A stretch of DNA of 64,000 nucleotides from Candidatus Obscuribacterales bacterium (GCA_038231015.1 JBBRMD010000014.1:31776-95775), one strand, 5' to 3'; counted from the stretch's first letter, positions 30,952-49,122 are shown. The notes: generated by a model not told the origin, from the sequence alone. Program-made: numbers and translations.

Positions 30952-31013
30952 GGGGCTACTAAAGGGGGATGCCCTATTATACACGCAAACCGCCGTTGTC
31001 AAGCGCAACTGTG

Positions 31014-31997
31014 CTACAGCTTGTGCTCTTTCAGCCATTGCGCCAGGAGAGTTACGCGCTCGTTCTCAGGGTCTAAGTTGTGGGCAACCTTGTAGCTTTT
31101 AAGAGCAGCTTGATTGTTACCTTGCTGAATCTGGAAACTGGCCAGGTTGCACCAACTAGCAACATCTTTAGGATTTTTCTCTAACAATATGCGAGTGGTC
31201 GACTCGGCATTGCTGGTCAGGCCCTGTTCGGCCTGGATAGTAGAAAGGTTTTGATAAGGCCACTCGAAGGCCGGATAGTCTTTAATACATTCTTCCAGAA
31301 GGGCCTGAGCCTCGGCGCTATGGCCCAAATGGCAGAGATTCCAAGCCTTGTTGTTCAGTTGCAGGGCGCGTGGTGGTGGATCGCTTATCGGTAATTCAGT
31401 AGCAATTGTGCGCTTTGCCTTTTTGGCCAGGGCGCTATTTGGCTTTTCTTCGACTATCTTTTGCAAAGCCTGTCTGGCGGCATCAGGCCAACCCATGTCT
31501 AACATTTGAGTACCCAAAATCCAGTATTGGTCAGCGTTGAGGCCTTCAGGCACGAATTTCTCTGGGCATTCTGTGCGCTTGAGCAATAGACTCAAAGTTC
31601 TCTCGTCTCTTCTGACTTTCAGTTCGGAGGTATCGCCAGCTCGCCCTTGCAGCAGAAAGAGGATATCAGCGCTGTCAAGGTTGCTCACATCGATGTTGTC
31701 TATCGACTTAATTACGTCTTGATCGGCCAGCCCGGCAGCGCCCGCTGGAGAGTACCTGCGCACTCTTAGCACAACGTTGCGACTAAGCTCGGCACCGAAG
31801 TAACCGACAGATTTCGTCTCTGTTTGATTTCTGGCTGGTGTCGATTGATTGTCGGTAATTGGGGTCGAATTAATGTTGGCGGGGCTGCATTGAGCGAATG
31901 GTGCAGTAAAAAGGTTCACAGTCAGGGCAATTGCCAGCGGGAGTGCCAGTGATAAGGCCATAGATTGGCCTCTAGATATGCACTTAGACTTTCTCAT
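31014..31997 (-). CDS. exported PDZ-domain + TPR-repeat protein
   Basis: PDZ-like VLRVRRYSPAGAAGLADQDVIKSIDNIDV...ELKVRRDERTLSLLLKR, then TPR units. Start chosen at ATG 31997 (MRKSK... plus a signal peptide, with AAGGG upstream). The maximal ORF reaches 32057. Confidence 0.6.
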   Translation of the reverse strand: MRKSKCISRGQSMALSLALPLAIALTVNLFTAPFAQCSPANINSTPITDNQSTPARNQTETKSVGYFGAELSRNVVLRVRRYSPAGAAGLADQDVIKSIDNIDVSNLDSADILFLLQGRAGDTSELKVRRDERTLSLLLKRTECPEKFVPEGLNADQYWILGTQMLDMGWPDAARQALQKIVEEKPNSALAKKAKRTIATELPISDPPPRALQLNNKAWNLCHLGHSAEAQALLEECIKDYPAFEWPYQNLSTIQAEQGLTSNAESTTRILLEKNPKDVASWCNLASFQIQQGNNQAALKSYKVAHNLDPENERVTLLAQWLKEHKL

Positions 31998-32215
31998 AGA
32001 CTCGCCCTTAAGTTCATGAGTGCTCAAGTAACTGCCCAATTTTCTAGCCATTGCCATCGCCCCTTAATTTCCCGTTTGGGATGCCTTTCACGAGCAGTTT
32101 AGTCATCAAATGGGAGTATTTCGTGAAGATCTCAAATGCGACAAATAGAGGCAAGTGCTTGCAATCCGAGTTGGCAGGCTTGATAATTTTTCTACTTACC
32201 AATGAGAGTTACCTT

Positions 32216-34054: not shown

Positions 34055-35844
34055 TGAAATTCAAAAAACAGACTCAATCATTACTACTGGCCGCAGCCCT
34101 CGGTACCAGCATTATTTGCCCGCCTGACGCTAGTGCCGCTCCCGCTTGTAATGAAGCTGATGACATTATTGGTCGGGCCTTAAAAGACGAAATGAAGCGC
34201 AGCATCAGTCGCCTTCATCTTGATCAATACAAAGGCCCGTATTTTGGCTCTTACACTATTGAACAATTCGACACCCACCATGTCTCCGCTTCTTTCGGTG
34301 CTCTTACCTCTGAGTACTTGTCGCTCACGAGATTGTTGACAGTGCAAATGCGTCAGGGTGATTACGCTCTTGATAGTTCTGGCTCAGGCTTTGGTGGTGA
34401 GCTATCTGCGCTGCTTAGTAATTTTCACTTAGGTAGCTCTTTAACTTGCGACGATAACTACGATGCCATTCGCCATGAAGCTTGGCTCAGGACAGATGAG
34501 GCTTATAAAAAAGCGATTGAAGAATTGGCTGCTAAAAAAGCTTATTTGCTTGAGAATAATGTCAAAGATTTGCCTGAGTCGATGACTAAGGAAGAGCCGG
34601 TAGTTCTTGTTGGTGAGATCGCGAGAATAACTCCTGAAGCGACGAAAGTGAGCGCTCTAGTTGTTCACTTGTCGGCAATCTTTCGTAAGTATCCGCAAAT
34701 TCAAAAGTCGTTTGTCAAACTCGACAACGATGCTACAACCCGTTGGTATTTAAATAGTGAGGGTTTCTATCATCGGCTGCCCAACAGTAGATGTCGTGTC
34801 ATTTTTGCTGCTAGCGCCCAAAGTGCTGATGGTTCAGTAATTGCTGATGCAGATTCAATTAATGCTTGGAACAGTAATGAACTGCTTGCGCTGCAAGAGC
34901 TTGAGGCGAAGGTAAATAAACTGGCTGAGCGTGTCACTAACCTTGTTAGTGCTCCGGAGATTGAGGAGTATCACGGACCAATCTTATTTGAAGGCCAAGC
35001 GGCTTCAAGTTTCTTCGCTGATGTTCTGCAGCCGCATTTAGGATATAAGGCCCCAAGTCTGAGTAAATTTAGCGCACTAGAGGGGGCCAGTGCCAATCCT
35101 CTTGCTGAGAAAGTTGGTTCGCGCGTGCTGCCCTCATTTATCTCAGTAATCGATGACCCACTCACGAAAGAGTTTGGCAACATCAAGATTACTAGCAGTT
35201 ACCTACTCGACGACGAAGGTGTCAAAGCCGAGAAGATTACTCTGATTGATAAGGGCATTTTGAAAACCTTTGCCATGAGCCGCACACCGTCCAAGACAAT
35301 CAAGCACAGTAATGGCCACGGCTTTGCTGGCAGTGGAATCGCCCAGAACCTCTATATTGTCTCGGACAAAAAGCTATCAGCCGCGCAGTTGAAAGAGCGT
35401 TTGATTGTTCTTGGTAAAGAAGAAGGCCTGAAAGATGTTCTCATTGTTCGTCGCTTAGTCAATTCTGTAAGTGGTGCTCTTTCTCCGCAGTCGATTTTGT
35501 CGAGCATGCTTGGGATGTTTGGTAAAACAGCTGAAGTTAAGCTCTCGGCCCCAGTAGAATTGGTAAAGGTATCTGTTGCCGATGGACACGAAGAAATCGT
35601 GCGTGGTGGTCAATTTGGCAACCTAACTATGCGCATTTTACGCGATATTGAAGCCACTGGTGATGACATGCAAGCTTATCCAGCTAGTTCTGGGCGCAAT
35701 AGTTCAATTAGTTCTCTTGGCACTGGTGATGATTGCACCATCGTTACACCATCAGTGTTAGTCAAAGAAATTGAATTGCAGAAGCCATCTAAACAGACAG
35801 AACTGCTGCCAATCTTGAAGAACCCATACTTCGAACAGAAGTAA
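34054..35844 (+). CDS. exported TldD/PmbA-family protein lacking the HExxxH motif (TldE/PmbA-like partner)
   Basis: Same fold blocks as the upstream gene (SFISVIDDP..., LLDDEGVKAEK..LIDKGILK.F, SNGHG, PSVLVKEIELQ), but the zinc-site position reads FFADVLQPHLGYK. Signal peptide present. The start overlaps the upstream stop (TAATG). Confidence 0.75.
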   Translation: MKFKKQTQSLLLAAALGTSIICPPDASAAPACNEADDIIGRALKDEMKRSISRLHLDQYKGPYFGSYTIEQFDTHHVSASFGALTSEYLSLTRLLTVQMRQGDYALDSSGSGFGGELSALLSNFHLGSSLTCDDNYDAIRHEAWLRTDEAYKKAIEELAAKKAYLLENNVKDLPESMTKEEPVVLVGEIARITPEATKVSALVVHLSAIFRKYPQIQKSFVKLDNDATTRWYLNSEGFYHRLPNSRCRVIFAASAQSADGSVIADADSINAWNSNELLALQELEAKVNKLAERVTNLVSAPEIEEYHGPILFEGQAASSFFADVLQPHLGYKAPSLSKFSALEGASANPLAEKVGSRVLPSFISVIDDPLTKEFGNIKITSSYLLDDEGVKAEKITLIDKGILKTFAMSRTPSKTIKHSNGHGFAGSGIAQNLYIVSDKKLSAAQLKERLIVLGKEEGLKDVLIVRRLVNSVSGALSPQSILSSMLGMFGKTAEVKLSAPVELVKVSVADGHEEIVRGGQFGNLTMRILRDIEATGDDMQAYPASSGRNSSISSLGTGDDCTIVTPSVLVKEIELQKPSKQTELLPILKNPYFEQK

Positions 35845-35898
35845 GTACTGGCCGTCTTATCGCAAGCTTGCCTTGATTTCGACAAGGGCCAACCAAGT

Positions 35899-36453
35899 CT
35901 ATGCCGTCTTATTCTTGCTGCTCAAATCAACGGTCATGCTGATTACTGAAGCTGTGCGTTTAAGTCGATTGACTGGATATTTTGAATGGCGGAGGAAATT
36001 GAGCATTTTGCTATTGTCAGGCATGATGTAGCAAACAAACTCTGAAACACCTTTGGTTACTGCGATTTGGGCAAGGTGGTCTAGCAGTATATTACCAATG
36101 CCGTGGCGCTGATAGTCTTCACCCACAAGCAGAGCGAGTTCAGCAGTCGCTTTGCCGTCGTCATCGCTTTGGGTTATATAGCGGCCAACCGCAATCGCTG
36201 TATCGCTACCGTCGCAAAGGCTGACGATAAGCCCGATGTGGCTATCAAAGTCAATTTCAGTAAAGTACTTAAGCTCAGTGTCCGTAAGCAGTTTCTTCGC
36301 GCAGAAGAAGCGATAATATCGCGATTCAGCGCTTACATCGTTCATTATTTGCTGTAACAGAGCTTTGTCGCTGGCGCGTATTGCTCTAACAATTACTGCT
36401 GTGCCGTCTTTCAGCCGGTCTTTGGCGGCATACTCATGGTTGCCTTCGAACAT
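35899..36453 (-). CDS. GNAT-family N-acetyltransferase
   Basis: Motif A context ELALLVGEDYQRHGIGNILLDHLAQIA. Confidence 0.75.
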   Translation of the reverse strand: MFEGNHEYAAKDRLKDGTAVIVRAIRASDKALLQQIMNDVSAESRYYRFFCAKKLLTDTELKYFTEIDFDSHIGLIVSLCDGSDTAIAVGRYITQSDDDGKATAELALLVGEDYQRHGIGNILLDHLAQIAVTKGVSEFVCYIMPDNSKMLNFLRHSKYPVNRLKRTASVISMTVDLSSKNKTA

Positions 36454-36559: not shown

Positions 36560-38719
36560 TTATTCCAACTTAAACCACTCTGCTGGCGACTCGCCGCCAA
36601 ACGCCTGGGGATTGACTCTACTGCCCTCCGTAACAATTTTTATTGTTCGGCCTGGATGCTCTTCATGTATTTTCTTTATTCCTTCTTTGGTCACTGCTGT
36701 GCCGCTGACGTCGATTCTAGTCAGCTTAGGTAAATTGCAGAGAAAGGCCAGAGTCTCATCGTTGACTCCGCTGGCTTGCAGATCTATGAAATCAAGGTTC
36801 TTGCAGTCAGCAAGCAACTTGGCATACTTCATCGTAAACACTTGATCGGGGTTTTCTATAGACAGTCTCTCCAAGCTCTCTGAGCCTTTAAGGGCAGTGA
36901 GAAGCTGGAAAGTATCTTTGTTGAAGTTTGACTGAAGCTCAGTTAGGTCTTTCAGGCCTTTAAACTTGGCCAAGCCACTACCCGTGATATTGGTTGTAGA
37001 AACGTTGAGATAGCGAAGGTTCGGGAGTTGGTTAAGATAAGGAATTATTGAATCGTTGCACTCAGTTGATTTTAAACGCAGATGCACGAGACTTTTAAGC
37101 TTTGCTATGTGGGGCATCAAAAGATTGCCGTCAACAAATTTGGCCATTACTTCAGGCAGGCTGAATGCATACAAGTCAGTTGGTCTAAAGAAATCAATCA
37201 AGTTAGGATGAGCGCAGAGATACTCATTGGCCTCGAAAGAAACTCGGCCATTGATTTTGAGGACAACCCTTCCTTTTGCTTCTTGGCGCACCTTCATTAA
37301 TAAATTACCGATTCGTCCTATCGATTGATCAAATGGGAAGTCAAACATAATCGACCTGCCGCTGTTAATCTCAGTTGAGTAAAACTCTAAAGTTTCGCTG
37401 CTTAATTTTGATACTACAGCTGGTGTTATAGTCGCTGCAGTCGCACTAACCGTGGCCAACTCCTTTTCTTTGGCCGCCGCTGTGCCTGGCAGAATAGGAG
37501 TAACTAGTTTTGCCTGTCTTGCTGTGTAGACTTGTATAACAGTAACTATAGTGATTACCGCACCGAAAACTAATAGGAGGCCCGTTATGGCAAAGGTATT
37601 GAGCTTAGTTTGAACTGGCTTGACTATTTGAATTTCTTCTTCTTCATCGATGATCGCTTCGCTATTCTCACCATAGCGCTCAAGATCTATAAAAGGCGAT
37701 GTATTGATTTCTTCTCCGGCAAGTATCTTCTCTAAGTCGCTTCCGACTTTCTCTAAGTTTGGATAGCGATTCATCGGCGCCTTGGCCAGCATTGTGGCAA
37801 TTAGATGTTCCATCGAATCAGGAAAATCAATGCCACTGGCTTGTTTAAGAGTTGGTGGAGTGTCTTGGCTATGCATGAGCATAGTGGCGATTTTGTTCTC
37901 CCCTCTAAACGGTACTCGTCCTGTAAGCGTTTCGAAAAAGGTACAACCGAGCGAATAGATATCTGAGCGGGCATCAGTCTTTCCACCCTCACATTGCTCT
38001 GGACTCATGTAGAGTGGGCTGCCGAAGATTTCGCCTTTTGTAGTAAGTTTTTGATTGTCTGGATCGACAGTGCCGGCTAGTTTTGCGATGCCAAAGTCGA
38101 CTAGTTTTACAGAAGCACCAGTCGCATCTGCTTGATCGAGTATGACAATATTGCCTGGTTTTACATCGCGGTGCACTATCCCTTTTTTATGGGCAAAACC
38201 AAGACCGTCACAGATTTCGATAAACATTGGCAGGCTATCATTTAGGCTAAGTGACTTAGTGCGTTTTAAAATTTGCGCTAGGTTACTGCCTTGCAAAAAA
38301 TCCATGACGTAGTAGGGGATTTTTCCTTCGTGAAGACCCAAGTTGTGAATGCCAACGATATTTGCGTGATTGATTCGAGCGATGGCTTGGGCCTCTACCT
38401 GCAGCCTCCGCCAAGAAATTTCAGACACCTGTTCGCTATCTATGGTCTTCATTGCATAGATTTTCTGGAGAATAGTATGCTTCACTTTATAAACATAGCC
38501 CATGCCACCAACCCCAATGAGATCGATGATCTTGTAGTTTTCGCCGACTACATCTCCAGCCTGAAACTTGCCATCTGAAACGTAGGCTCTTGCGACCACT
38601 TGAGGCTGCTCATTTTGATCGGCCACCGTACGCGTTTGATCTTGACCTTCAAAGTCTGATTGTTTTACTGTGCGTTGAGTTTCTTCTGGGTTCATTGCAT
38701 CCAACCTTCGACTTAGCAT
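36560..38719 (-). CDS. receptor-like Ser/Thr protein kinase: Hanks kinase, TM, FDFP module, leucine-rich repeats (paralog 4 of 4 in transcription order)
   Basis: GVGGMGYVYKV, AMK, HRDVKPGN, DFG, SPLYMSPEQ. TM is FAITGLLLVFGAVITIVTVIQVY. C-terminal LRRs include LPNLRYLNVSTTNITGSGLAKFKGLKDLTEL. Confidence 0.9.
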   Translation of the reverse strand: MLSRRLDAMNPEETQRTVKQSDFEGQDQTRTVADQNEQPQVVARAYVSDGKFQAGDVVGENYKIIDLIGVGGMGYVYKVKHTILQKIYAMKTIDSEQVSEISWRRLQVEAQAIARINHANIVGIHNLGLHEGKIPYYVMDFLQGSNLAQILKRTKSLSLNDSLPMFIEICDGLGFAHKKGIVHRDVKPGNIVILDQADATGASVKLVDFGIAKLAGTVDPDNQKLTTKGEIFGSPLYMSPEQCEGGKTDARSDIYSLGCTFFETLTGRVPFRGENKIATMLMHSQDTPPTLKQASGIDFPDSMEHLIATMLAKAPMNRYPNLEKVGSDLEKILAGEEINTSPFIDLERYGENSEAIIDEEEEIQIVKPVQTKLNTFAITGLLLVFGAVITIVTVIQVYTARQAKLVTPILPGTAAAKEKELATVSATAATITPAVVSKLSSETLEFYSTEINSGRSIMFDFPFDQSIGRIGNLLMKVRQEAKGRVVLKINGRVSFEANEYLCAHPNLIDFFRPTDLYAFSLPEVMAKFVDGNLLMPHIAKLKSLVHLRLKSTECNDSIIPYLNQLPNLRYLNVSTTNITGSGLAKFKGLKDLTELQSNFNKDTFQLLTALKGSESLERLSIENPDQVFTMKYAKLLADCKNLDFIDLQASGVNDETLAFLCNLPKLTRIDVSGTAVTKEGIKKIHEEHPGRTIKIVTEGSRVNPQAFGGESPAEWFKLE

Positions 38720-38725
38720 TATGCC

Positions 38726-40831
38726 TTATTTGGGTAGCAGCCAGTTGGCCGGATCTTCTCCGCCGAAAGAGTTTTCTAGGCTTGTTCTCACTGCTTTCGC
38801 CTGAACGATTTTTACATGGGCGTGAGCTTTTCGCAATTTTGCCACCACTTCAGCTGTGACCGGGCAAGATGTTATTGCCAGATAATTTAGATTAGGTGCT
38901 GTTGTAATTATTTCAAGGACTTTATCGTCGGCTGTTGAACCTTCAATATCTAAATGTTTCAGATTTTTGCAGCTTGCTAGTAGGTGAGCTACTTCTTCAT
39001 CAATTGTTTGACCCTCTAAATAGAGGGTATCGATTGCTGTTGAGCCAGCCAAGGCTTTCATAAGATCTTTGCCGTCATTGTTGTGACTGAATGAAATCGA
39101 TTGGAGATTTTTCAATTGCGGCAATTTGCCCAGACCAGCGCCAGTTATGTCTGTGTTGTTCGCCCTGAAATTTTGGAGACTGGTGATCTTGCTGATTTCT
39201 TCTAAGCAACCGTCTGAGGCGTTGCTGACATTTAAGTTGAGTTGTTTCAAACCTGTCAATTTAGCGATATAGGGTATCGCTAAATTGACATCAACTTCTT
39301 GACCATTATCTACGTCGGTTACTAGTGACGATTCTGGTGTTGTTACTGAATACAGATCGTCTGATCTAAACGAATTAAAACATTCAGGATGAGCCATTGC
39401 GTATGCATTTGGATAGAAATAAAGATTCTGATTCTTCTTGAAAGTCAATTTGCCTTGCGCCGGTCTGCCATTGGTATTGCGCATGTTAAGAGCGATATCG
39501 CCGATTGATTGTTTCTCTGGGAAATCGAATTGAATAGAGCCGTTGGTCAATATGTGCGAATATTTTTCAGCCGGCGTCTGTGTTTGTTTGACTGCGAGCG
39601 CTTTTGTCGCTACTGCTGTGGTCGAATCGATAGTTCGTTGGTTGGTAAAGTAGACGGTTATTGTCACCAAAGAAGCCACCAATAAACTCGCTAATATGGC
39701 CACCTTTCGCGGCGTAATGCTTTCAATTGCCTGTATTGTTTTCGTTCCAACTGCCGATGACTTAGATCCTTTGTCACTATCGTCTAGGAGGAGATTTGCA
39801 ATTCCGTGGGCATTGAATGGTTTAGCCGATATCTCGCGCCCTTCCAAAATGTTTTGCAGGTCTTCGCTGACTTTCTCAAGGTTGGGATAGCGATTCATTG
39901 GCTCCTTTGCGAGCAAGGTCGCCACGAGGTCTTCCATCGAGTCAGGAAAGTCTAAACCACTGGCTTCGTACAAAGTTGGAGGGGCGGTTTGGCAGTGCAT
40001 GAGCATGGTTTCAACTGGAGTTTTTCCATGAAATGGTGCATCACTGGTGAGGGTTTCAAAGAAAGTGCAGCCCAGTGAATAAATGTCTGAGCGAGCGTCT
40101 ATGCGTTTGCCTTCGCACTGCTCAGGGCTCATGTAGAGCGGGCTGCCGAATACTTCACCGATGGTTGTCAGTTTCTGATTTTCAGGATCGATAGTGCCAG
40201 CTAATTTGGCGATGCCGAAATCTACAATTTTTACTCTGGCACCACTAAAATCAGGCTCATCTAAAATCACAATATTGCCTGGTTTAATGTCTCTGTGCAC
40301 AATCCCTTTTTTGTGTGCATAACCAAGACCATTGCAAATTTCAATAAAGATTGGCAAACTTTGCTCTAGTGTCAAATATCTCTTTTGCTGCAGTATCTCG
40401 GCAAGATTTGTGCCCTTGAGATAGTCCATTACATAGTAGGGCACTGAACCTTGGTTATTGTCGAAGGTATGAATGCCTAAGTTGTGGATGGCAACAATGT
40501 TGGGATGATTGATGCGAGCAATAGCTTGTGCTTCTACTTGTAGCCTGCGCCAGGCCATCTCAGAGACCTGCTCACCACTAATAGTTTTCATAGCATAGAT
40601 TTTCTCAAGAATGCGGTGGCGCACTTTGTAGACATAACCCATGCCGCCAACCCCGAGCAGCTCCATAATTATGTAATTCTCGCCAACGATATCGCCGGGT
40701 CTCAGTTTGTTGTCCGACAGGTATGGTCTGGCTGCAGATTCAGCTTGACCCTGACCAGCCGTTAGGCGCGTGCTATTTTGGACATCTTGGTCAGATGGTC
40801 CGAAAGTACCATGGAGATTGTCTTGGTCCAT
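38726..40831 (-). CDS. receptor-like Ser/Thr protein kinase with C-terminal LRR ectodomain (paralog 3)
   Basis: Same kinase motifs (HRDIKPGN, DFG, SPLYMSPEQ). TM is VAILASLLVASLVTITVYF. FDFPEKQSIG module followed by LRRs. Confidence 0.9.
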   Translation of the reverse strand: MDQDNLHGTFGPSDQDVQNSTRLTAGQGQAESAARPYLSDNKLRPGDIVGENYIIMELLGVGGMGYVYKVRHRILEKIYAMKTISGEQVSEMAWRRLQVEAQAIARINHPNIVAIHNLGIHTFDNNQGSVPYYVMDYLKGTNLAEILQQKRYLTLEQSLPIFIEICNGLGYAHKKGIVHRDIKPGNIVILDEPDFSGARVKIVDFGIAKLAGTIDPENQKLTTIGEVFGSPLYMSPEQCEGKRIDARSDIYSLGCTFFETLTSDAPFHGKTPVETMLMHCQTAPPTLYEASGLDFPDSMEDLVATLLAKEPMNRYPNLEKVSEDLQNILEGREISAKPFNAHGIANLLLDDSDKGSKSSAVGTKTIQAIESITPRKVAILASLLVASLVTITVYFTNQRTIDSTTAVATKALAVKQTQTPAEKYSHILTNGSIQFDFPEKQSIGDIALNMRNTNGRPAQGKLTFKKNQNLYFYPNAYAMAHPECFNSFRSDDLYSVTTPESSLVTDVDNGQEVDVNLAIPYIAKLTGLKQLNLNVSNASDGCLEEISKITSLQNFRANNTDITGAGLGKLPQLKNLQSISFSHNNDGKDLMKALAGSTAIDTLYLEGQTIDEEVAHLLASCKNLKHLDIEGSTADDKVLEIITTAPNLNYLAITSCPVTAEVVAKLRKAHAHVKIVQAKAVRTSLENSFGGEDPANWLLPK

Positions 40832-40887
40832 TTGTAGTAACCGCTGCTTAGCTTAAGCATTATGCCCAGAAACGAGCAAAATTGGCC

Positions 40888-42972
40888 CTATTTCAGCAAG
40901 GCGGCATTGAGTTTCTGCTGACAGGCAGAGGTCCACATTCGGCTCTGAATCGCCACAGACTTTAGTGCTTTCATCTTTTTGAACGATTTAATGGCTCTCT
41001 CGTCGATAGCGCCATCGACCGAGGTAAATTGTATGAGTTTTGGTAGCTTACACAGCGCCTCAATGGCCTCGTTATTGGCGCCGGGACCGCCAATTTCTAA
41101 AATTTCCAGATTGGGCATGGTCGCCAGATAGCCGATGTCTTCTTTGGTTAGAGCACCGTCGCTCAAAGAGTTAACCTTGAACCAGAGCATTTTTTTGCTG
41201 CCAGCCATGGCTTTTAGAAGCGGGGTGATCTGGCGGCAAGATGTGAAATCAATATTGATCAACTGCTTCATGTAAGGAAGCTTTGCTACCTCCGTGCCAT
41301 TGGCGTTGGTGGCGCTCAAGTCGAGGTGGTTTAGATTAGTAAACTGTCCAAGAATTCTAATATCGCTATCTTTTAACTGGGTGCAATTGGCCAAGCTTAG
41401 GCTGTTTAACTTGTCTAAGTGCGACATGTTTTTGAGGGCGGCAGTGATGTCGCTCATTATTGGCTTTGGTGAGGGAATGAAGGCATCATTATCTGGTGCT
41501 TTACCATCGGCGATATAGCGCAGGGCAATGCCATAAAAATCGCCATTTTTGAAGGCCCTAAAGTTCTCAGGATGGGTCATCATTGTGCTGTACGATGTGA
41601 AGACTAATTTTGTCTCTATTGGAAATTCAAGACGGCCTGAAGCTCGCCAGTCTCCCCTTCCTTTCGATTCGCTGTGAATTAGGCCGAGGCTAACTTTGGG
41701 GAATTGAAAAACCTTTATAACTTCTTTTCCCTTGCGTACATAGCTGCACACTGGGCTAGTTATGACACTTTGAGCGACTTTATTAACATTAGGAAGTGTG
41801 GCATTGTCTGCCGAGCTCTTGCTTTCTACTTTGCTTGTGCTGAGGTCTTCTCGTCCTACAAAGAGTCTTGTCAGTGATGGCAGGTTGGTGCTTCCGCCGA
41901 TTGCTAGTACGGCGAGAGCAGCAACCAAGAGAGTGCCAACTGAAATTGCCACCACGATTACTGCTATGTTGCTTCGAAGTTGACCAGAATTGCCGTCTAC
42001 TTTTGAAGAGGTGAGGTCAGCACTGATTTCTTCAAGGTCTTCCACTACTGCTGCTAAGTTTTGATAGCGTTCGCGTGGTTTCTTCGCTAGCATTTTTGCT
42101 AGTACCATATCTAGTGCTTCCGGAAAATGCTGTGATTTGCTGGCTTTTTCAGCTAGAGTTGGTGCCGGTTCACCTTGATGCATCATCATTGTTTGCATGG
42201 CATTGCTGCCGCGAAATGGTGGTTGTCCAGTCAGAGTCTCAAACAGCGTACAACCGAGAGCGTAGACGTCTGAGCGAGCATCGCAACGCTCTGACAAGCA
42301 TTGTTCGGGACTCATGTAGAGCGGACTGCCGAAAATTTCGCCCATTGAAGTAATGTTTTGATTGTTGGGATCGGCTGTGCCTGCTAGTTTAGCAATGCCG
42401 AAGTCGACTACCTTTACTTTGGCACCAGTCGAATCTGCTGATTTCAGCAGTATGATATTTCCTGGTTTGATGTCGCGATGAATGATCCCTTTTTTGTGTG
42501 CATAGTTAAGTCCGAGCGCGACTTCTGTAAAAATTTCCAATGTTTCTTTTAGCGGAAGCGAGCCGCGCGAGGCAAGCTTTTGCGCCAAGCTCGTGCCCTT
42601 TAACAGGTCCATTACGTAGAAAGGACGCCCGTTTTCGATACCAAAATTGTGGATGCCGACAATGTTAGGGTGATTCATGCGGGCAATGGCCTGAGCTTCA
42701 ATCTGCATGCGGCGCCAAACTGTTTCTGTTAATTGCTCTGCTCTAATTGTTTTAACAGCATAGACTTTATGGAGAATTTGGTGGCGTGCTTCGTAAACAT
42801 AGCCCATGCCACCAACACCAATAAGGCGAATAACCTCGTAGTCGCCAATCAAATCACCAGGGCTCAACTCATAATTGTCTAATGCGGCAAAATTGAGCTC
42901 ATTGCTTTCACTCAGCCTTGTTTTGGCATCGTCATCAGCGTAATCTTGGTCGCTAGTGTCTGAGTTTTTCAC
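40888..42972 (-). CDS. receptor-like Ser/Thr protein kinase with C-terminal LRR ectodomain (paralog 2)
   Basis: Kinase motifs as above. TM is IAVIVVAISVGTLLVAALAVLAIG. FQFPKVSLG module followed by LRRs. Confidence 0.9.
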   Translation of the reverse strand: MKNSDTSDQDYADDDAKTRLSESNELNFAALDNYELSPGDLIGDYEVIRLIGVGGMGYVYEARHQILHKVYAVKTIRAEQLTETVWRRMQIEAQAIARMNHPNIVGIHNFGIENGRPFYVMDLLKGTSLAQKLASRGSLPLKETLEIFTEVALGLNYAHKKGIIHRDIKPGNIILLKSADSTGAKVKVVDFGIAKLAGTADPNNQNITSMGEIFGSPLYMSPEQCLSERCDARSDVYALGCTLFETLTGQPPFRGSNAMQTMMMHQGEPAPTLAEKASKSQHFPEALDMVLAKMLAKKPRERYQNLAAVVEDLEEISADLTSSKVDGNSGQLRSNIAVIVVAISVGTLLVAALAVLAIGGSTNLPSLTRLFVGREDLSTSKVESKSSADNATLPNVNKVAQSVITSPVCSYVRKGKEVIKVFQFPKVSLGLIHSESKGRGDWRASGRLEFPIETKLVFTSYSTMMTHPENFRAFKNGDFYGIALRYIADGKAPDNDAFIPSPKPIMSDITAALKNMSHLDKLNSLSLANCTQLKDSDIRILGQFTNLNHLDLSATNANGTEVAKLPYMKQLINIDFTSCRQITPLLKAMAGSKKMLWFKVNSLSDGALTKEDIGYLATMPNLEILEIGGPGANNEAIEALCKLPKLIQFTSVDGAIDERAIKSFKKMKALKSVAIQSRMWTSACQQKLNAALLK

Positions 42973-42995
42973 AGCTGCCTATGATAGCGCCCCAG

Positions 42996-45281
42996 TTACT
43001 CGTCTAAGACAACCGTATTGATTCTGGGAAACTGTTTCTTCAGCAATTCTTGGCAGCGTAGGTTCCAGGTAGCACATTCAAAATCAGCGCATTCAAGGCC
43101 CTTTATTTTGGCGAGAGACTTGAGGGAGGCTTCACTTATTTTATTTGAATGAGCGTAAAGCATTTTCAGATGTGGCAAGGTGGCCAGTATCGCTATGCTT
43201 TCATCGTCAAGATTGCAATCGTCTAAGTCAAGCCTGATCAGGTTCTTACAGCTAGCAATCAGCTTTACGTCATCTAAACTAAGAAGGTGACCGCGAGGGC
43301 GGTCAAGGCCTAGATTGACTAGTTTTTTTGAACCAGCTATGGCTTTGAGAAGAGTACTCACCTTAACACCCTCGCTGTAAGTTAACGAAGTAAGCTCTTT
43401 CAATCGGGCTAGTTTACTCAAGCCCCTGCCAGTAATGCTGGTGTCACTGGCGCGCAGCACTATCAAGTTGGGCAACTTATTCATCGGAGCAATGCATCTG
43501 TCATTTGCATTGGGGCAATCTGTTAAGTCTAGCTTTTTCAATCCACTCATATGCTGAATGTTTTTGAGTGCTAAGACCACATCGCTTTCATAGCTGTCAG
43601 GGAGGAGAAACTCACTGTTATTGTCATTGCTGCCTGCCTTCTGTGCCGGCATCGCCCGTTGAAAAAGGTGTATGCCATAAAGGTCGTCGGCCTTGAAGCG
43701 AGTAAAGTAGTGCACTTGGTCCATTAGCTGTGGTGAGGCCATTAATTCGAGTTTGGCGTTTACTGGATATTGTTTGGAGCCTTTAATTTGCCAATATTCT
43801 GTGCTGCCGTTGACAAAAATGCGACCCAAATAGTTATCAGATGGGAAGTCAAATTGTTTGACTGGTTTGCCCTCTTTATCTACAGTAAGATGACTAAAAG
43901 GTTTTTCCTCTTCTGGGCTTTTCTCTAGTGCCGGGGCCACAGTTGACTCGGCTTTTTCTTGAATCGGAACTTCAGCCTTAGTATCACTGGTGGTGCTGGC
44001 CGGTTTGCTCACTGCAGCCGCGTTTGACAGTAATACAGCTGGTTGTAATACGGCTGATTGTGATGCTGCTGGTACTGATAGGGCGCTGGCATTTTGCTTG
44101 TGATTTGTCTGGAAGAACCAAATGCCGGCAGCGACTAAAACAAGAACTGCTGCGGCAGTCGCTATAGCGATACCTATAGCAAAATTTTGAGCTGGTGATT
44201 TTTCTTCTGGTTCTTCTGGTGCAAAGAAGGTATGAGTATCAAACAATGCTTTAGTTTGAATTTCTCTGCCCGCAGCTAGCGATTGCAAATCTTCGGCTAC
44301 TCTTTCTAAACTTTGATAGCGGTCCATCGGGGCTTTTGCTAACAATTGATAGACCAATTCTTCAATTTCATCTGGAAAATCTTTGCCAGAGGCTGCACTC
44401 ATAGTTGGCGGTTCATGACTTTGATGCATGACCATGGTTTGTACTGGGTTGTTACCCCTGAAGGGCGGAAGGCCCACCAAAGATTCAAAGAGCGTGCAGC
44501 CTACCGAGTAGATGTCAGAGCGAGCGTCGATGCGCTTGCCCTCACATTGTTCGGGGCTCATATAATATGGGCTGCCAAAAACTTCGCCAACGCAGGTGAG
44601 GTTCTGGTTATCTGGATCGCTAGCTCCAGATAGCTTAGCAATGCCAAAATCTACGATTTTAACAGTGGCACCAGAGCTGTCAGGCTCTTTCAACAAGATG
44701 ATATTGCCTGGTTTAATGTCGCGGTGGATGATCCCTTTTTTGTGCGCATAGGCTAGCCCGCGGCAAACCTCGATAAAAATTGGTAGAGCTTGGGTCAGTG
44801 TGAGGCTGCCTCTTTTAAGGCGATCAGCCAAAGATTCTCCGTCAAGAAGGTCCATCACATAGTAGGGCAGGCGGTCTTCGTGTAGCCCCAAATTTTGAAT
44901 GCCGATAATGTTAGGGTGATTCATGCGAGCAATTGCTTGGGCTTCTACTTGCAAGCGCCGCCAGGCTATTTCGCTAACATGCTGAGAGCTGAGAGTCTTC
45001 ATGGCATATTGCTTCTGCAGAATGCGGTGGCGCACACGATAAACGTAGCCCATGCCGCCCACGCCTATGAGCGAGATAATTTCATAATTTTCGCCCACCA
45101 GGTCGAGAGCATGAAGTTTGCCGTCGTTCGGCCGCTCCGGCACGATAGTGACGTTAGCGTCTGCCATTCCCAAAAGTGAGCTATTGGTTAATCTTGTGCT
45201 GTCTTGGCAGTCAAGACTCAGATTAGGCCCTGGGTCTGTGTTAATGCCAGAATAGCTCTGGGATTGATCGTTTGGGTTCAT
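42996..45281 (-). CDS. receptor-like Ser/Thr protein kinase with C-terminal LRR ectodomain (paralog 1)
   Basis: Kinase motifs as above. TM is FAIGIAIATAAAVLVLVAAGIWFF. A long A/S/P linker, an FDFPSDNYLG module, then LRRs. Confidence 0.9.
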   Translation of the reverse strand: MNPNDQSQSYSGINTDPGPNLSLDCQDSTRLTNSSLLGMADANVTIVPERPNDGKLHALDLVGENYEIISLIGVGGMGYVYRVRHRILQKQYAMKTLSSQHVSEIAWRRLQVEAQAIARMNHPNIIGIQNLGLHEDRLPYYVMDLLDGESLADRLKRGSLTLTQALPIFIEVCRGLAYAHKKGIIHRDIKPGNIILLKEPDSSGATVKIVDFGIAKLSGASDPDNQNLTCVGEVFGSPYYMSPEQCEGKRIDARSDIYSVGCTLFESLVGLPPFRGNNPVQTMVMHQSHEPPTMSAASGKDFPDEIEELVYQLLAKAPMDRYQSLERVAEDLQSLAAGREIQTKALFDTHTFFAPEEPEEKSPAQNFAIGIAIATAAAVLVLVAAGIWFFQTNHKQNASALSVPAASQSAVLQPAVLLSNAAAVSKPASTTSDTKAEVPIQEKAESTVAPALEKSPEEEKPFSHLTVDKEGKPVKQFDFPSDNYLGRIFVNGSTEYWQIKGSKQYPVNAKLELMASPQLMDQVHYFTRFKADDLYGIHLFQRAMPAQKAGSNDNNSEFLLPDSYESDVVLALKNIQHMSGLKKLDLTDCPNANDRCIAPMNKLPNLIVLRASDTSITGRGLSKLARLKELTSLTYSEGVKVSTLLKAIAGSKKLVNLGLDRPRGHLLSLDDVKLIASCKNLIRLDLDDCNLDDESIAILATLPHLKMLYAHSNKISEASLKSLAKIKGLECADFECATWNLRCQELLKKQFPRINTVVLDE

Positions 45282-45360: not shown

Positions 45361-46500
45361 CTAAATATCTAGTTTTGCTATCTCACTTTTCAGAATGTCG
45401 GCATTACTTTCACAAAGATCTAGCAAAATCGCGGCCTGTTGCCAGTTTTGCTCTTTTAGTGCTCTTTTCATTTTGGGCAAGGTTTCGCCAAGCTCTTCTA
45501 CAGCTTGCTGTGCCTTTGTCGCCGTTGGGTAGTGTTTCTTAAGCAGGCTGGCCATTCTTGCCAAGTCTTCTTTCAAACTGGTTGATTCGCTTGCCGAAAG
45601 ATTAAAATTGGCCGAAAGCTCGCTCTCTTTTTTTGTCTGCGCACTGCTCTGAGCATGAGCTTCGTATTTTGATAGGGCTTGTGATTCGATTTGACCTAGG
45701 CGCAAGAATTTTTCTAAATTATTGCTATCGCCTTTCATATAAGCGTCAAGCGCAGATTGCAGGCCCTTTTCTAGTGAATGCATTTGCGAGCGAACTTGAT
45801 TTATTTGACTCAAGCCAGAAGATAAGGTCAGGCGAGAAAATGTGGTGGTTATTTGCCAGGCAAAGCTGTTCAGCGATCTGATTGCTTTGTTTGGGTGCTT
45901 TTTTGAATAGAGTTCATCGTTTGTCAGATGGCCATAGACAAATTGGGCCCACACCAGCCCACATTCGGCTAATTTTGTAGCCTCTTTATCACTATCTGCC
46001 TGGCCGTAGCTTTCGATGGCATCCTGCAAGGTTTGCACAACTTCCAGCAATCTTTCTTTGAGCCGACGATTGAGAGTGATTTTTTTGTACTCAACTACCA
46101 GTTTTATTTGGGTAATTGCTTCTACTAAAGTTTGAATGCTTTCTTCGCAACTGCCCTCGCTAAAATTTGGTGCGGGAGCTGTCAGCTGTGATAAGTCAGT
46201 CTTGCTGCTATTGAAGTGTCTTTTTGCCAGTTCTACGTGCAGAAGGCCGCGTCTAGAATGTTCTATGGCTTCTTCGTAATCGTCTAGAGTGACAGATTGC
46301 TTCGCTTTTTGGTAGGCCCGTCTAGCTTTATTGAGTCGTTGCAAAGAAAGTTGGCGATGGACGCCTTCGCTTTCTTGATCGCTGCTTTCATCGCTATGAA
46401 TACTTTCTTCAGCAATAGATTGAGAGAGCAGTGCTAGCAAGTCTTCTGCCACTGCTGCCGTCTGTTTCAAAGGTTTGTCGAAATCGAAATTATCTATCAT
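45361..46500 (-). CDS. all-helical hypothetical protein (379 aa) with an internally repeated helical-hairpin module
   Basis: Long ORF. The start overlaps the upstream stop (ATGA at 46497-46500). Recurrent (A/S)(I/L)(E/D)x(Y/H)...(L/A)xxxx(A/V) segments. No family recognised. Confidence 0.5.
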   Translation of the reverse strand: MIDNFDFDKPLKQTAAVAEDLLALLSQSIAEESIHSDESSDQESEGVHRQLSLQRLNKARRAYQKAKQSVTLDDYEEAIEHSRRGLLHVELAKRHFNSSKTDLSQLTAPAPNFSEGSCEESIQTLVEAITQIKLVVEYKKITLNRRLKERLLEVVQTLQDAIESYGQADSDKEATKLAECGLVWAQFVYGHLTNDELYSKKHPNKAIRSLNSFAWQITTTFSRLTLSSGLSQINQVRSQMHSLEKGLQSALDAYMKGDSNNLEKFLRLGQIESQALSKYEAHAQSSAQTKKESELSANFNLSASESTSLKEDLARMASLLKKHYPTATKAQQAVEELGETLPKMKRALKEQNWQQAAILLDLCESNADILKSEIAKLDI

Positions 46501-46946
46501 TGGGCACTAATTTCAGTGTCATTGCTAGTGTCATCGCTAGTCTCGTCAGTGGCGTCTAAAAGCTCACCTTCATAGCTCTTTAGTCTTTTAGCTAGGCGCT
46601 CAACGGTTTGTTTAAGACTGTCGCTCACCTGCTTTTGCGTTTCTATTAGATCTAGGTAGCTATCTTGTCCGAGGATGTGTTCAGTGGCCTCAGCGGTCAA
46701 AATATCTTGGGCAAATTTGGCATAGAACCAGGCCACATTGAGAGATTTGATAGTTTGCAATTTATCATATTGAGCCAGCGATTTAACTGCTTCAGATATG
46801 GCCGATTCAGCGTTGATAATCGACAAATCGACTATTTCGTTTTTATGATAGACCGCTAGCGCCTGGGCGTCTTTGATTACGATGACGAATTGTTCAAGAG
46901 CGCTAATGCGCTCAATTAAGTGCTTGCTATCGTTCGCTTTTGTCAT
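46497..46946 (-). CDS. helical hypothetical protein (149 aa), acidic S/T/D C-terminal tail
   Basis: Start chosen at ATG 46946, 4 nt after the cstA stop. The track ORF start at 46991 would overlap cstA by 41 nt. Confidence 0.5.
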   Translation of the reverse strand: MTKANDSKHLIERISALEQFVIVIKDAQALAVYHKNEIVDLSIINAESAISEAVKSLAQYDKLQTIKSLNVAWFYAKFAQDILTAEATEHILGQDSYLDLIETQKQVSDSLKQTVERLAKRLKSYEGELLDATDETSDDTSNDTEISAQ

Positions 46947-46950
46947 TTTA

Positions 46951-49122
46951 TTAACAGCAGCGTAGCGGAGGGCTCGACTGGCATTCGGCAATGATACTTT
47001 CTTTGCTCAAGCGCTCATCTGAATTCACTGCGGTTTCATGATTATCTGTAGTGTTAGCGGCAGTTTGCATTGCAGCTAATTTTTGGCGATCTGGTTTTAG
47101 CCAATTTCGAACTGATTCAAAGAGAATGATCAAGACCAATACTATAAATAGACTGCCCAAGGCAGCATCAAGATAATCGTTGAAGATCAAGACTTTCGTT
47201 GTAGCAGCCTCTTCAGCCAGGACTCCCGTGACGGTTGCAAGCTTAGCTTCAAGCATATGGGCATGTGCTAAGAAGCCTAATTTGGCATCGGGGGAGAAGA
47301 TTTTTAAATAGCCGGCAGTGAAAGTAACAGTCAATAACCAGCAGAGAGGCCCGAGGGTGACCCAGGCATACGAGCGCTTGCCCATCGAAATTATGCATGA
47401 TGTAGCGACGCAGAGCGCCACCACCGACAGTAGCTGATTGCTGATGCCAAACAGTGGCCAGAGGCTATTGATACCACCGAGAGGATCGATCACACCTTGA
47501 TAGAGAAAATATCCCCAACCACCGACAACAAGAGCAGAACTGAGAGCCACGGCTGGATACCAATCAGTTTTACCTAAAGGCTTATAGAGCAAAGCGAGAA
47601 AATCTTGCAAGAGAAATCTGCCTACTCTTGTACCGGCATCGAGGCAAGTAAGAATGAACAGTGCTTCAAACATGATGGCAAAGTGATACCAGAATGAAAT
47701 GGTTACTTCTGACAAGCCCTTTACCGGTGCTGAGGCCAGTACACGAGCAAAAATCTGAGCCATCCCTACAGCCAAAGTCGGCCCGCCACCGGTGCGGCCC
47801 CAGAGGCTATCTTCGCCCATCTCTTTGGCAAGTTCTTGCATGCCACCTGGGCCGGTGTCACTCACGGCATAGCCCCATGAACTAATTGTGGCGGCGGCTG
47901 CCACATGGTCGGTGCCGACCACTCCTTTAGGAGAATTTATGGCAAAGTAAGTGCCAGGTGCTAAAACACAGGCAGATATTATTGCCATGATCGCCACCGC
48001 TGCTTCGCATAACATGCTGGCATAACCAATTGGCCGAGCATGTGTTTCTTTTGAGATCATCTTTGGTGTGGTGCCAGATGAAACCAATGAATGGAAGCCC
48101 GAGATGGCGCCGCAGGCTATTGTAATAAAGCAAAAGGGAAATATATTACCTTTGAACAGTGGCCCTTGGCCGTCAATAAATATCGTGAGTGGAGGCATTT
48201 CTAGATCTGGTCTCAATATCAAAATGCCAATTGCCAACAGGCTGATTACGCCAATTTTAAGAAAAGCGGAAAGATAATCGCGTGGTGCCAGTAAAATCCA
48301 AACCGGTAAAACTGAGGCAACAAAGCCGTAGATCATCACACTAATTGCAAGCTGTGTGCCGCTCAGGGTGAAGATTGGTGCCCAAGTTGGATCTTGACCG
48401 ACCCACTTACCTGCCACCACTGCCAGTATAGTCAGTATTACTCCGATGGTTGAGCCTTCCATAATTTTGTGAGGACGCAGCACTTTCATATAGATGCCGA
48501 TTAGCATGGCTATTGGCACAGTCATTAGCAATGTAAATGCGCCCCACGGGCTACCCTTGAGAGCATTGACGATTACTAAGGCAAGCACTGCCATCAATAT
48601 CATCATGATCAATAGAATGGCAATCAATGCCACTGTTCCGGCTAGGGGACTAATCTCGTCGCGGGCCATTTGGCCAAGCGATTTGCCGCCGCGGCGCATA
48701 GAGGCGGCGAGAATAACAAAGTCTTGTACGGCGCCGGCTAATACTGCTCCAACGATAATCCAGATTGTGCCGGGCAGAAAACCAAACTGCGAAGCGAGAA
48801 TGGGGCCGACTAAAGGTCCAGCGCCAGCAATAGCAGCAAAGTGGTGGCCGAATAATACCCACTTGTGAGTCGGTACATAGTCTTTGCCGTCGTCGACTAT
48901 AGTGGCTGGTGTCTCGTGAATATCTTGCAGAGCAAATACTTTGTCGGCCAGAAACTTGCTATAGAAGCGATAGGCTGTAGCAAAGGTGCAAGAGCTCGCC
49001 AAAATTAGCCAGACAGCATTGACTTTCTCTCCCCTGGAGGCAGCCATGGTGTAGAGCGAAAACAAAGCAATTAAAGCGATTGGCACCCATATTGCCAGGC
49101 CCTTTAGTTTAGATGCGCTCAT
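46951..49122 (-). CDS. cstA: carbon starvation protein A (peptide/pyruvate transporter family)
   Basis: [42 protein letters not shown]... and a multi-TM architecture typical of CstA. Confidence 0.9.

Follow-up and report, generated by a model that had tools for sequence, protein, structure and literature searches.

Four tandem receptor-like serine/threonine kinases with leucine-rich repeat ectodomains in an Obscuribacter-like bacterium

The Gene Array

The window analyzed here is a stretch of 64,000 nucleotides from an Obscuribacter-like organism, a non-photosynthetic relative of the cyanobacteria, and all coordinates are counted from its first letter. Four co-directional open reading frames on its minus strand encode receptor-like Ser/Thr kinases, named here K1 (36560-38719; longest ORF, 719 aa; Pkinase E 3.5e-47), K2 (38726-40831; 701 aa), K3 (40888-42972; 694 aa, GTG start), and K4 (42996-45281; 761 aa). 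The ORF coordinates agree with the gaps of 6, 56, and 23 nt given in an earlier note on this DNA, with one reservation. The 6-nt gap between K2 and K1 holds for the longest K1 ORF, but the true start of K1 is probably M9 (nt 38695), since in the alignment this residue falls on the starts of K2 and K4 and on MDPEETERTVKQ in the ortholog; therefore, this gap may be 30 nt. The short gaps are consistent with a putative operon, and promoter and terminator scans of the array gave matches at chance level only. As previously noted, no FHA or PP2C gene adjoins the array: none is found anywhere on its contig, the 8 FHA and 3 PP2C matches of the genome being all on other contigs, and no substrate, FHA, or PP2C partner linked to the array was found.

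Kinase Domain and Membrane Topology

The Hanks-type kinase domain is indeed present in each of the four proteins (Pfam Pkinase, E 1e-47 to 2e-51; 161-175 bits, gathering cut-off 31.7) and follows a short, acidic tail in which an (S/T)-T-R motif is conserved. In K1, this domain comprises residues 55-332 (37724-38557, minus strand, like all features below) and aligns end to end with the kinase domain of M. tuberculosis PknB (E 9e-46); Pfam places it at 39848-40693 in K2, 42025-42861 in K3, and 44274-45107 in K4. The catalytic Lys, the alphaC Glu, and the HRD...N, DFG, and SPE motifs (the earlier note had seen no loss of Lys, HRD, or DFG) are invariant in the alignment (GVGGMG, K91, E109, H183-R184-D185-K187-N190, D208-F209-G210, and S239-P240-E241 in the four proteins) and line up with those of PknB; the activation loop of K1 also contains the TT when aligned with PknB. 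Phosphotransfer activity is predicted for K1-K4. The long identical runs formerly quoted for the kinase domains are exact between K1 and K2, while K3 and K4 deviate from them at 1-3 positions.

The nearest kinase relatives of K1 are bacterial PknB/PknA. The best NCBIfam match of the array kinases is the Stk1/PknB family (NF033483; 275-278 bits), limited to the kinase domain and under the 450 cut-off, so these kinases fall outside the Stk1/PknB PASTA class; PASTA repeats gave no Pfam match in K1-K4. A Roco/LRRK identity was considered and rejected: the Pfam search found no Roc or COR domain, and a Chlorobium Roco protein matches via its LRR only.

Each protein contains exactly one strongly hydrophobic segment, defined by a Kyte-Doolittle 19-residue mean above 1.6 and taken as the transmembrane helix: residues 376-398 in K1 (37526-37594), 377-395 in K2 (39647-39703), 336-361 in K3 (41890-41967), and 367-389 in K4 (44115-44183). 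A single segment of this kind also separates kinase and ectodomain in 24 of 24 other full-length family members examined. The sequence C1_213796 has an extra N-terminal hydrophobic segment, probably due to an over-extended ORF start. The predicted topology, with the kinase inside and the LRR outside as the earlier note had it, is supported because there is a single helix, because the kinase domain, which depends on ATP, follows no N-terminal signal peptide, and also because paralogs without a kinase (at least 12, of 330-350 aa) begin with a hydrophobic, signal-peptide-like segment that leads directly into the x-F-P...G cap and the LRRs. The positive-inside rule is neutral in this regard (93 K/R on the N side versus 91 on the C side in 34 proteins). 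Melainabacteria are thought to be diderm, and the cap and LRR module would be periplasmic if the cell has this type of envelope.

The Ectodomain

The helix is joined to the ectodomain by a low-complexity linker of 30-90 residues rich in Ser, Ala, Pro, and Thr. In K1, the ectodomain consists of a beta cap (residues 447-511; 37187-37381; 5-6 strands in the AF2 model, pLDDT ~92) and an LRR solenoid (residues 514-701; 36617-37180) recognized by AF2, as 8 parallel strands, by Foldseek, and by a profile comparison with the PDB. Motif and ORF analysis delimited the ectodomains of K2 (38729-39553), K3 (40891-41733), and K4 (42999-43877). The conserved F(D/Q)FP...G module, already recognized as beta-rich, occurs in all four proteins (at residues 459, 435, 422, and 477 of K1 to K4, respectively) and is part of a broader family signature, F-x-F-P...G...A-x-G...P...F. 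Of the 13 ectodomain columns that are invariant or nearly so among 28 paralogs, 8 lie in the cap, which has no match in Pfam and nothing significant among PDB folds (best E 0.73). K1-K4 match the cap profile with E 3e-19 to 4e-24 and the full ectodomain HMM along its whole length.

The AF2 prediction proposed for the ectodomain yielded a confident model of the cap and an LRR horseshoe (pLDDT 90.5, pTM 0.87, 8 parallel strands). Single-sequence Pfam LRR matches are weak and mostly under the cut-off; the family ectodomain profile matches LRR proteins in the PDB (GSO1, E 4e-45), and Foldseek retrieves LRR proteins at probability 1.00 with the K1 model, among others FBXL17 (TMq 0.61), FBXL2 (0.58), RNase inhibitor (0.57-0.58), and the Legionella LRR protein 4q62 (E 3e-7). 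The core Leu columns are well defined (entropy 0.2-1.5 bits). The ectodomain belongs to the leucine-rich repeat superfamily, with a curved solenoid and a parallel beta sheet in the model. The repeats announced by the earlier note are thus real, but there are 7-8 of them instead of about 6-7, each of 24-28 residues with a helical convex side, which brings them nearer to the cysteine-containing/FBXL type than to ribonuclease-inhibitor repeats of 28-29 residues.

Divergence among Paralogs and Orthologs

The impression that the kinase domains are alike and the linkers and ectodomains far more diverged is confirmed by a per-domain identity matrix, in which divergence is clearly not uniform: identity among K1-K4 is 59-75% in the kinase, 25-41% in the beta module, 22-36% in the LRR (22-41% for the ectodomain overall), and 4-33% in the linkers. 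Between orthologs (G000 versus the sister species G045), the kinases are 81-94% identical and the LRRs 56-63%, and no gene conversion has occurred since the two split. The conservation of the orthologs against the divergence of the paralogs indicates, therefore, that each ectodomain is maintained and yet distinct.

The concave face, whose conservation had been proposed for comparison, is the most variable part of the LRR. Its predicted xxLxLxx positions are 12% identical among the four paralogs versus 33% for the other LRR positions, a control that mixes buried and exposed residues. The same comparison gives 47% versus 61% between orthologs (Fisher p 0.003) and, in 28 paralogs, an entropy of 3.25 versus 2.46 bits (Mann-Whitney p 8e-13). 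Variability at exposed xxLxLxx positions is common to most LRR families. Synonymous sites are saturated even between orthologs (pS 0.6-0.85), so dN/dS is not computable, and the faster change of the ectodomain and its concave face may reflect relaxed constraint rather than adaptive diversification. The suggestion that each receptor recognizes a different ligand now draws additional support from the hypervariability of this face.

Family Distribution and History of the Array

K1-K4 have the complete layout of a defined family: a Hanks kinase, one transmembrane helix, a beta cap with the signature, and 7-8 LRRs. The genome (6.1 Mb) contains 116-117 Pkinase ORFs, 39 of which carry the cap-LRR ectodomain (about 32 cover the full cap plus LRR), in addition to the kinase-less paralogs. 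The array is, therefore, a small part of a genome-wide, family-specific expansion, with about 35-40 receptor kinases per genome. The kinomes of the Obscuribacteraceae reach about 90-117 Hanks kinases, with genome sizes of 4.6-6.7 Mb. When related genomes were surveyed for copy number, as had been recommended, the cap profile gave 25-38+ matches per genome in four genomes of the same genus, 2-16 in four other genera of the family, and none in 120 genomes from 10 other families of the class or in 300 further genomes of the phylum. Within the about 450 Cyanobacteriota genomes sampled, the cap is thus restricted to the Obscuribacteraceae. Among 1.84 billion representative proteins, just 430 matched it at E<=1e-3, and 127 of the best 150 of these contain a kinase domain (111 full-length and 16 partial).

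Array copy number itself, which the note had also wished to see compared, varies among relatives. All four genes recur in the sister species, where they are 1:1 orthologs and keep their order; G059 and L002 have one kinase gene at the site followed by other genes, and G020/L001 has one as well, with the contig ending 255 bp further. A simple in-situ expansion from one gene to four is rejected by the AU test (p 2e-10), and the full-length, kinase-only, and ectodomain-only trees are concordant. K1 and K2 derive from duplication of the single gene sited there in the three relatives, while K3 and K4 are older paralogs retained in the array only in the present species and its sister. The family evolves by tandem birth and death.

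Proposed Function and Alternatives

Taken together, K1-K4 are probably lineage-specific, single-pass LRR receptor Ser/Thr kinases with a birth-death history and a proposed ligand-gated mechanism. The concave face of each ectodomain would bind a ligand of its own, a protein or peptide-like molecule, and the kinase would thereby change its orientation or oligomeric state, a switch described for PknB/PknD-type kinases. Autophosphorylation of the activation-loop Thr would come next, and cytoplasmic substrates would then be phosphorylated.

A special case of this receptor reading gives it an immune-like or predatory purpose, similar to that of plant RLK/RLP and R-gene repertoires: the kinases and the secreted kinase-less paralogs would sense molecules derived from prey, competitors, or phages as non-self. 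Tandem birth and death with a copy number of 25-38+ per genome, at least 12 genes arrayed in another genome (G059:C34), disrupted family copies, the hypervariable concave face, and the parallel secreted paralogs all fit this idea. Nonetheless, positive selection is not demonstrable with saturated synonymous sites, no effector or defence genes are linked (PADLOC is null for the neighboring genes), and large sensor expansions also arise for ordinary environmental sensing, which leaves this purpose unlikely. If true, it would constitute a bacterial counterpart of the plant RLK/RLP surface repertoire, made up of about 35-40 receptor kinases with LRRs and at least a dozen secreted paralogs that lack the kinase, with a relay by Ser/Thr phosphorylation.

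Somewhat less probable still is that the LRR acts as a scaffold, tethering constitutive kinases at defined sites to a fixed envelope partner or to neighbor cells. LRRs mediate protein-protein interactions in general, the fold matches include bacterial LRR proteins such as internalins and those of Leptospira, and the identity of orthologous ectodomains stated above indicates overall purifying constraint; however, about 35-40 distinct ectodomains that vary most at the interaction face suit many ligands better than few partners, and the kinase output domain is highly conserved. There is very little to recommend, in turn, an assignment to PD-T4-6-type anti-phage defence kinases. PADLOC models do match K1 and K4 (E 1e-76 to 2e-79), but most of these matches, the best ones included, are confined to the kinase domain (residues ~55-345), a few models extend through the juxtamembrane, helix, and linker region (to residues ~399-463), and none enters the cap or LRR; such kinase-domain matches would be expected of any PknB-like kinase. 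The partial NCBIfam matches to MAD6 (149-168 versus 460) and PglW (65-97 versus 990) are far below the cut-offs, and methylase, BREX, or other partner genes are absent nearby. Finally, an assembly artefact or decaying duplicates in this metagenome-assembled genome (145 contigs, 3.5% estimated contamination, with some family members elsewhere split or with an in-frame stop) are the least credible explanation, given four intact ORFs with invariant catalytic residues, an independently assembled sister genome with the same ordered orthologs, and paralogs that, at 22-75% identity, are too diverged for repeat collapse.

Comparison with Known Systems

The receptor reading places K1-K4 beside several described architectures. 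Among bacterial Hanks kinases, extracytoplasmic sensors are known chiefly from single-copy PASTA or propeller kinases, and LRR ectodomains do not figure as a class in reviews of bacterial transmembrane kinases. PknB (PASTA) and PknD (beta-propeller) have the same layout, with an N-terminal cytoplasmic kinase, a single helix, and a C-terminal extracytoplasmic sensor. In the array family, however, the sensor is a beta cap and LRR solenoid instead of PASTA or an NHL propeller, and there are dozens of tandem paralogs per genome instead of one conserved cell-wall-sensing gene. Closer in composition is a 1263-aa "protein kinase" from Prosthecobacter sp. (WP_294230581.1), which likewise combines a Hanks kinase, one helix, and C-terminal LRRs; proteins of this type are longer, belong to other phyla, are not known as expanded, and have no beta cap: the ectodomain HMM aligns to them only from the LRR part onward. 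The nearest LRR relatives outside the family are extracytoplasmic proteins of Planctomycetes/PVC (25-32% identity), fused to thioredoxin-like or BlaR1-type domains and without kinase or beta cap. That LRRs occur together with Ser/Thr kinases in bacteria was noted earlier for an LRR-containing STYK of P. aeruginosa (Krupa and Srinivasan, 2005; PMC1262709).

The plant LRR-RLKs (FLS2, BRI1, GSO1) and the oomycete LRR kinases likewise have an extracellular LRR, one helix, and a cytoplasmic Ser/Thr kinase. With these receptors, the array family also shares a large size with tandem arrays, conservation of the kinase, and variability of the xxLxLxx face; its ectodomain profile matches plant LRR ectodomains in the PDB, and its kinase-less paralogs are comparable to plant RLPs. 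The differences are equally clear: the kinase stands at the N-terminus and the LRR at the C-terminus, there is no N-terminal signal peptide, and the orientation is type II; the kinase resembles PknB, not Pelle/RLK; and the repeats are only 7-8, with a different N-cap and helical convex sides (24-28 residues, FBXL/RI-like) instead of the plant-specific 24-residue type. Membership of the Pelle/RLK/IRAK clade is, therefore, rejected by the reversed domain order and the PknB/PknA-like kinase, and the likeness to plant receptors drawn in the earlier note holds as an analogy only. LRR and kinase have been assembled convergently in separate lineages such as plants and oomycetes (PMC10463195). The array family adds bacterial LRR receptor kinases convergent with plant LRR-RLKs, in which the plan "LRR outside, Ser/Thr kinase inside" arose independently in a relative of Cyanobacteria. 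It suggests that uncultured Obscuribacteraceae possess extracytoplasmic sensing still to be explored and offers a compact bacterial system to study how an LRR ectodomain gates a kinase across the membrane, within an expansion whose evolutionary signature is that of LRR receptor kinases in plants and oomycetes: the genes stand in tandem arrays, the output domain is conserved, and the concave face varies.

The kinase array

The array (window 36560–45281) comprises four co-directional genes on the minus strand, named here K1 (36560–38719), K2 (38726–40831), K3 (40888–42972) and K4 (42996–45281), with open reading frames of 719, 701, 694 and 761 aa separated by gaps of 6, 56 and 23 nt. The ORF calls agree with this arrangement as first described in an earlier note made from the sequence alone. 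Because K1 probably starts at M9, its distance from K2 may be 30 nt instead of 6: the longest ORF adds eight residues, MLSRRLDA (38695–38719, minus strand), which are absent from the paralogs and not conserved in the ortholog of the sister species (G045). Promoter and terminator scans gave values at or below shuffle expectation and are uninformative on an operon.

Pfam recognises a Pkinase domain in all four proteins, with E from 3.5e-47 to 2e-51. The nearest NCBIfam family for this domain is Stk1/PknB, with scores (275–278 against a cut-off of 450) that are far too low because PASTA repeats are absent, and the K1 kinase domain gives a full-length alignment with PknB of Mycobacterium tuberculosis (E 9e-46). 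K1–K4 all carry, without variation, the activation-loop threonines together with the Gly loop, catalytic Lys, alphaC Glu, HRDxKxxN, DFG and SPE motifs, in line with the earlier note, which had seen no loss of the catalytic Lys, HRD or DFG. Exactly one stretch per protein is strongly hydrophobic, and it separates the kinase from the C-terminal region, for which single-sequence Pfam LRR matches are weak and mostly sub-threshold. In the N-terminal tails, about 25–35 residues ahead of the kinase domain, an acidic stretch leading into (S/T)-T-R-(L/A/T)-(T/S) is conserved (for example around window 38630–38640, 40760–40770, 42915–42925 and 45190–45200). Relatives have this motif in their single-locus genes as well, and it may serve for docking or as a phosphoacceptor.

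Structure and orientation of the ectodomain

The C-terminal 273 residues of K1 were modelled confidently by AlphaFold2 (pLDDT 90.5, pTM 0.87). The model starts with a beta cap, the module containing F-x-F-P...G, of five to six strands (residues 1–51), followed by two short helices, an LRR part with eight parallel strands spaced 24–28 residues and a helical convex side, and 20 disordered final residues. In a Foldseek search of the PDB, every match at probability 1.00 was an LRR protein; coverage was best with F-box LRR proteins (FBXL17, TMq 0.61; FBXL2, 0.58) and ribonuclease inhibitor (0.57–0.58), and the best E-value with a Legionella LRR protein. The ectodomain family profile likewise matches LRR ectodomains of the PDB, with E down to 4e-45 for a score summed over several repeated stretches. 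Modelled by itself, the beta cap is again confident (pLDDT 91.7); its model has no significant neighbour in a PDB fold search (best E 0.73), and it has no match in Pfam. In an alignment of K1–K4 with 24 paralogs, all from the genome holding the window (G000), the cap accounts for 8 of the 13 ectodomain columns that are invariant or nearly so (F13, F15, P16, G22, A35, G37, P59 and F65 in K1 ectodomain numbering). The succession of Hanks kinase, single transmembrane helix, beta-rich module and LRRs proposed in the earlier note is therefore borne out by Pfam, hydrophobicity, AlphaFold2 and Foldseek.

We infer that the cap and LRRs face outward and the kinase inward, the orientation originally suggested, because there is a single transmembrane helix with the ATP-dependent kinase N-terminal to it and no signal peptide, and because kinase-less paralogs place the cap and LRRs right after a signal-peptide-like segment. 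The flanking-charge (positive-inside) rule is neutral in this respect (K/R 93 on the N side versus 91 on the C side in 34 family members). At least 12 such kinase-less paralogs exist in G000, with 330–350 aa, a hydrophobic signal-peptide-like N-terminus and then an x-F-P...G cap-like motif and LRRs (for example contigs C17:2504–3529, C80:2006–2995, C57:3271–4329, C37:11157–12173, C9:18206–19228 and C1:196761–197756). Like plant RLPs, these proteins may represent secreted or periplasmic versions of the receptor ectodomains.

Divergence of the ectodomains

The four paralogs are 59–75% identical in the kinase, 25–41% in the beta cap, 22–36% in the LRRs and 4–33% in the linkers, which puts figures on the earlier view that ectodomains and linkers are more diverged than kinases. 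Between G000 and G045, orthologs are 81–94% identical in the kinase, 48–70% in the beta cap and 56–63% in the LRRs, with dN of 0.04–0.135 in the kinase and 0.30–0.37 in the LRRs. Each of the four ectodomains is maintained yet distinct.

Synonymous sites are saturated for paralogs and orthologs alike (pS 0.6–0.85), so that the dN/dS ratio proposed as a check in the earlier note is meaningless with these genomes. As a stand-in, the xxLxLxx positions of the LRR strands, whose concave side is the presumed binding face, were assigned from the AlphaFold2 model. Concave positions are the most variable: paralog identity is 12% there, 33% at other non-core positions and 39% in the core; ortholog identity is 47% at concave positions versus 61% (Fisher p 0.003); and mean entropy among 28 paralogs is 3.25 bits versus 2.46 elsewhere (Mann–Whitney p 8e-13). 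This variability, measured on modelled strands, is as predicted by diversification of a ligand-binding face and supports it short of proof; the same result would follow if strand positions that are exposed were under weaker structural constraint. Homogenisation of the kinase domains by gene conversion is rejected: orthologs are invariably closer than paralogs in kinase and ectodomain alike, which argues against recent conversion, and the trees of both domains are concordant.

Size and distribution of the family

The main addition to the earlier description is context: K1–K4 are a piece of a large Obscuribacteraceae-specific family. In G000 (6.1 Mb, 145 contigs, 95.7% complete), 58 ORFs match an HMM built from the K1–K4 ectodomains; 39 of them also have a kinase domain, about 32 with complete cap and LRR coverage. 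With five two-gene arrays elsewhere in the genome, K1–K4 is its largest local array of these kinases. A few members are split or truncated and one kinase match has an in-frame TAG (kinase domains split, truncated or interrupted at C1:223406–225313, C75:24600–26604, C79:25302–26693 and C9:12654–14424); these are probably pseudogenes or assembly errors, and are consistent with gene birth and death. In the congener G059, a far bigger array holds at least 12 co-directional genes at about 2.4-kb spacing (C34:19886–51111).

A cap profile of 74 positions has 25 to at least 38 matches per genome in four genomes of the genus of G000 and 2–16 in each of four other genera of Obscuribacteraceae, with zero matches in ten further families of the class Vampirovibrionia/Melainabacteria (120 genomes) and zero in 300 more Cyanobacteriota genomes. 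Among 1.84 billion representative proteins the cap gave just 430 matches at E<=1e-3; the best 150 of these include 111 with a full kinase and 16 with a partial one. Related loci occur in 'Candidatus Obscuribacter sp.' and other cyanobacterial MAGs, which marks G000 as an Obscuribacteraceae MAG, and the sole named member seen was 'serine/threonine-protein kinase [Candidatus Obscuribacterales bacterium]'. Within this sampling, the cap–LRR receptor kinases are specific to Obscuribacteraceae and number in the dozens, accompanied by putatively secreted paralogs that lack the kinase.

The kinome as a whole is also large, with 117 Pkinase matches in the 6.1 Mb of G000, 87–114 in each of three congeners and one genome of another genus (G020, G045, G059 and G036), and 13 in a 3-Mb Obscuribacteraceae relative. 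The eight FHA and three PP2C matches of G000 all lie on other contigs, in keeping with the reported lack of either gene beside the array. A classical cluster of PP2C phosphatase, FHA protein and Hanks kinase is located at C12:55386–57404.

History and neighbourhood of the array

The survey of copy number proposed earlier found four genes at this site in G000 and G045, and one in G059 and the L002 MAG, followed there by other genes. The G045 counterparts are 1:1 orthologs in identical order (64–70% identity), between flanking genes that are 71–92% identical. In G020 (locus L001) the one kinase at the site ends 255 bp before the contig end, and extra copies are possible there. The single-locus kinase of G059 (L035/L003, C16:14391–16507) reads as a pair of overlapping ORFs (348 and 386 aa), either through an assembly frameshift or as a disrupted gene.

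Trees from full-length, kinase-only and ectodomain-only sequences agree. K1 and K2 fall together with the single-locus genes and form a sister pair in the trees built from full-length and kinase sequences (the ectodomain tree leaves this point unresolved), while K3 and K4 branch deeper, close to one dispersed paralog (contig C31). The tails after the last LRR are of two types, F-G-(G/N)-E-x-P-A-(D/E/N)-W in K1, K2 and the single-locus genes and W-x-x-x-C-(Q/E)-x-x-L in K3 and K4, which fit this split. In the simplest reading, this is birth and death, with K3 and K4 as older paralogs retained here and elsewhere lost or never placed, and K1/K2 as a later duplication within the lineage of G000 and G045. 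A search of G020 and G059 at E<=1e-20 detected no ectodomain of the K3 or K4 type. A simple in-situ expansion from one gene to four is rejected, as a tree uniting the eight array genes fails the AU test (p 2e-10, for a group picked post hoc from the tree).

Upstream of the array, synteny is genus-wide for a nucleoside transporter, CstA and proteins of 164 and 379 aa. The last two are encoded by overlapping genes between cstA and the array (window 45361–46991, minus strand) and have no Pfam or PADLOC match. All four examined genomes of genus g1 and the L002 MAG retain their order after cstA, and the pair also occurs in another genus (G040, G010) without an adjoining kinase. Downstream (window 31014–36453) lie a PDZ-TPR protein, two TldD/PmbA-like metallopeptidase paralogs and a GNAT acetyltransferase. 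Near the array of G045 are the GNAT gene and a portion of one TldD/PmbA-like gene, arranged differently from G000, and in G059 and L002 the ortholog of window 29710–31038 comes directly after the single kinase.

Comparison with known systems

The matches to PADLOC PD-T4-6 and NCBIfam MAD6/PglW are essentially those of a generic kinase domain and are not taken as evidence for a defence role. No paper was found that describes LRR kinases or an expanded kinome in Obscuribacter/Melainabacteria; a bacterial kinase bearing LRRs was already noted in 2005 (PMC1262709). Kinase-TM-LRR proteins, for example in Prosthecobacter, resemble K1–K4 in layout but lack the cap. The cap–LRR kinases belong to the known bacterial single-pass Hanks receptor kinases and involve no new mechanism. 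By analogy, the evolutionary pattern of the family is convergent with that of the LRR receptor kinases of plants and oomycetes (PMC10463195).
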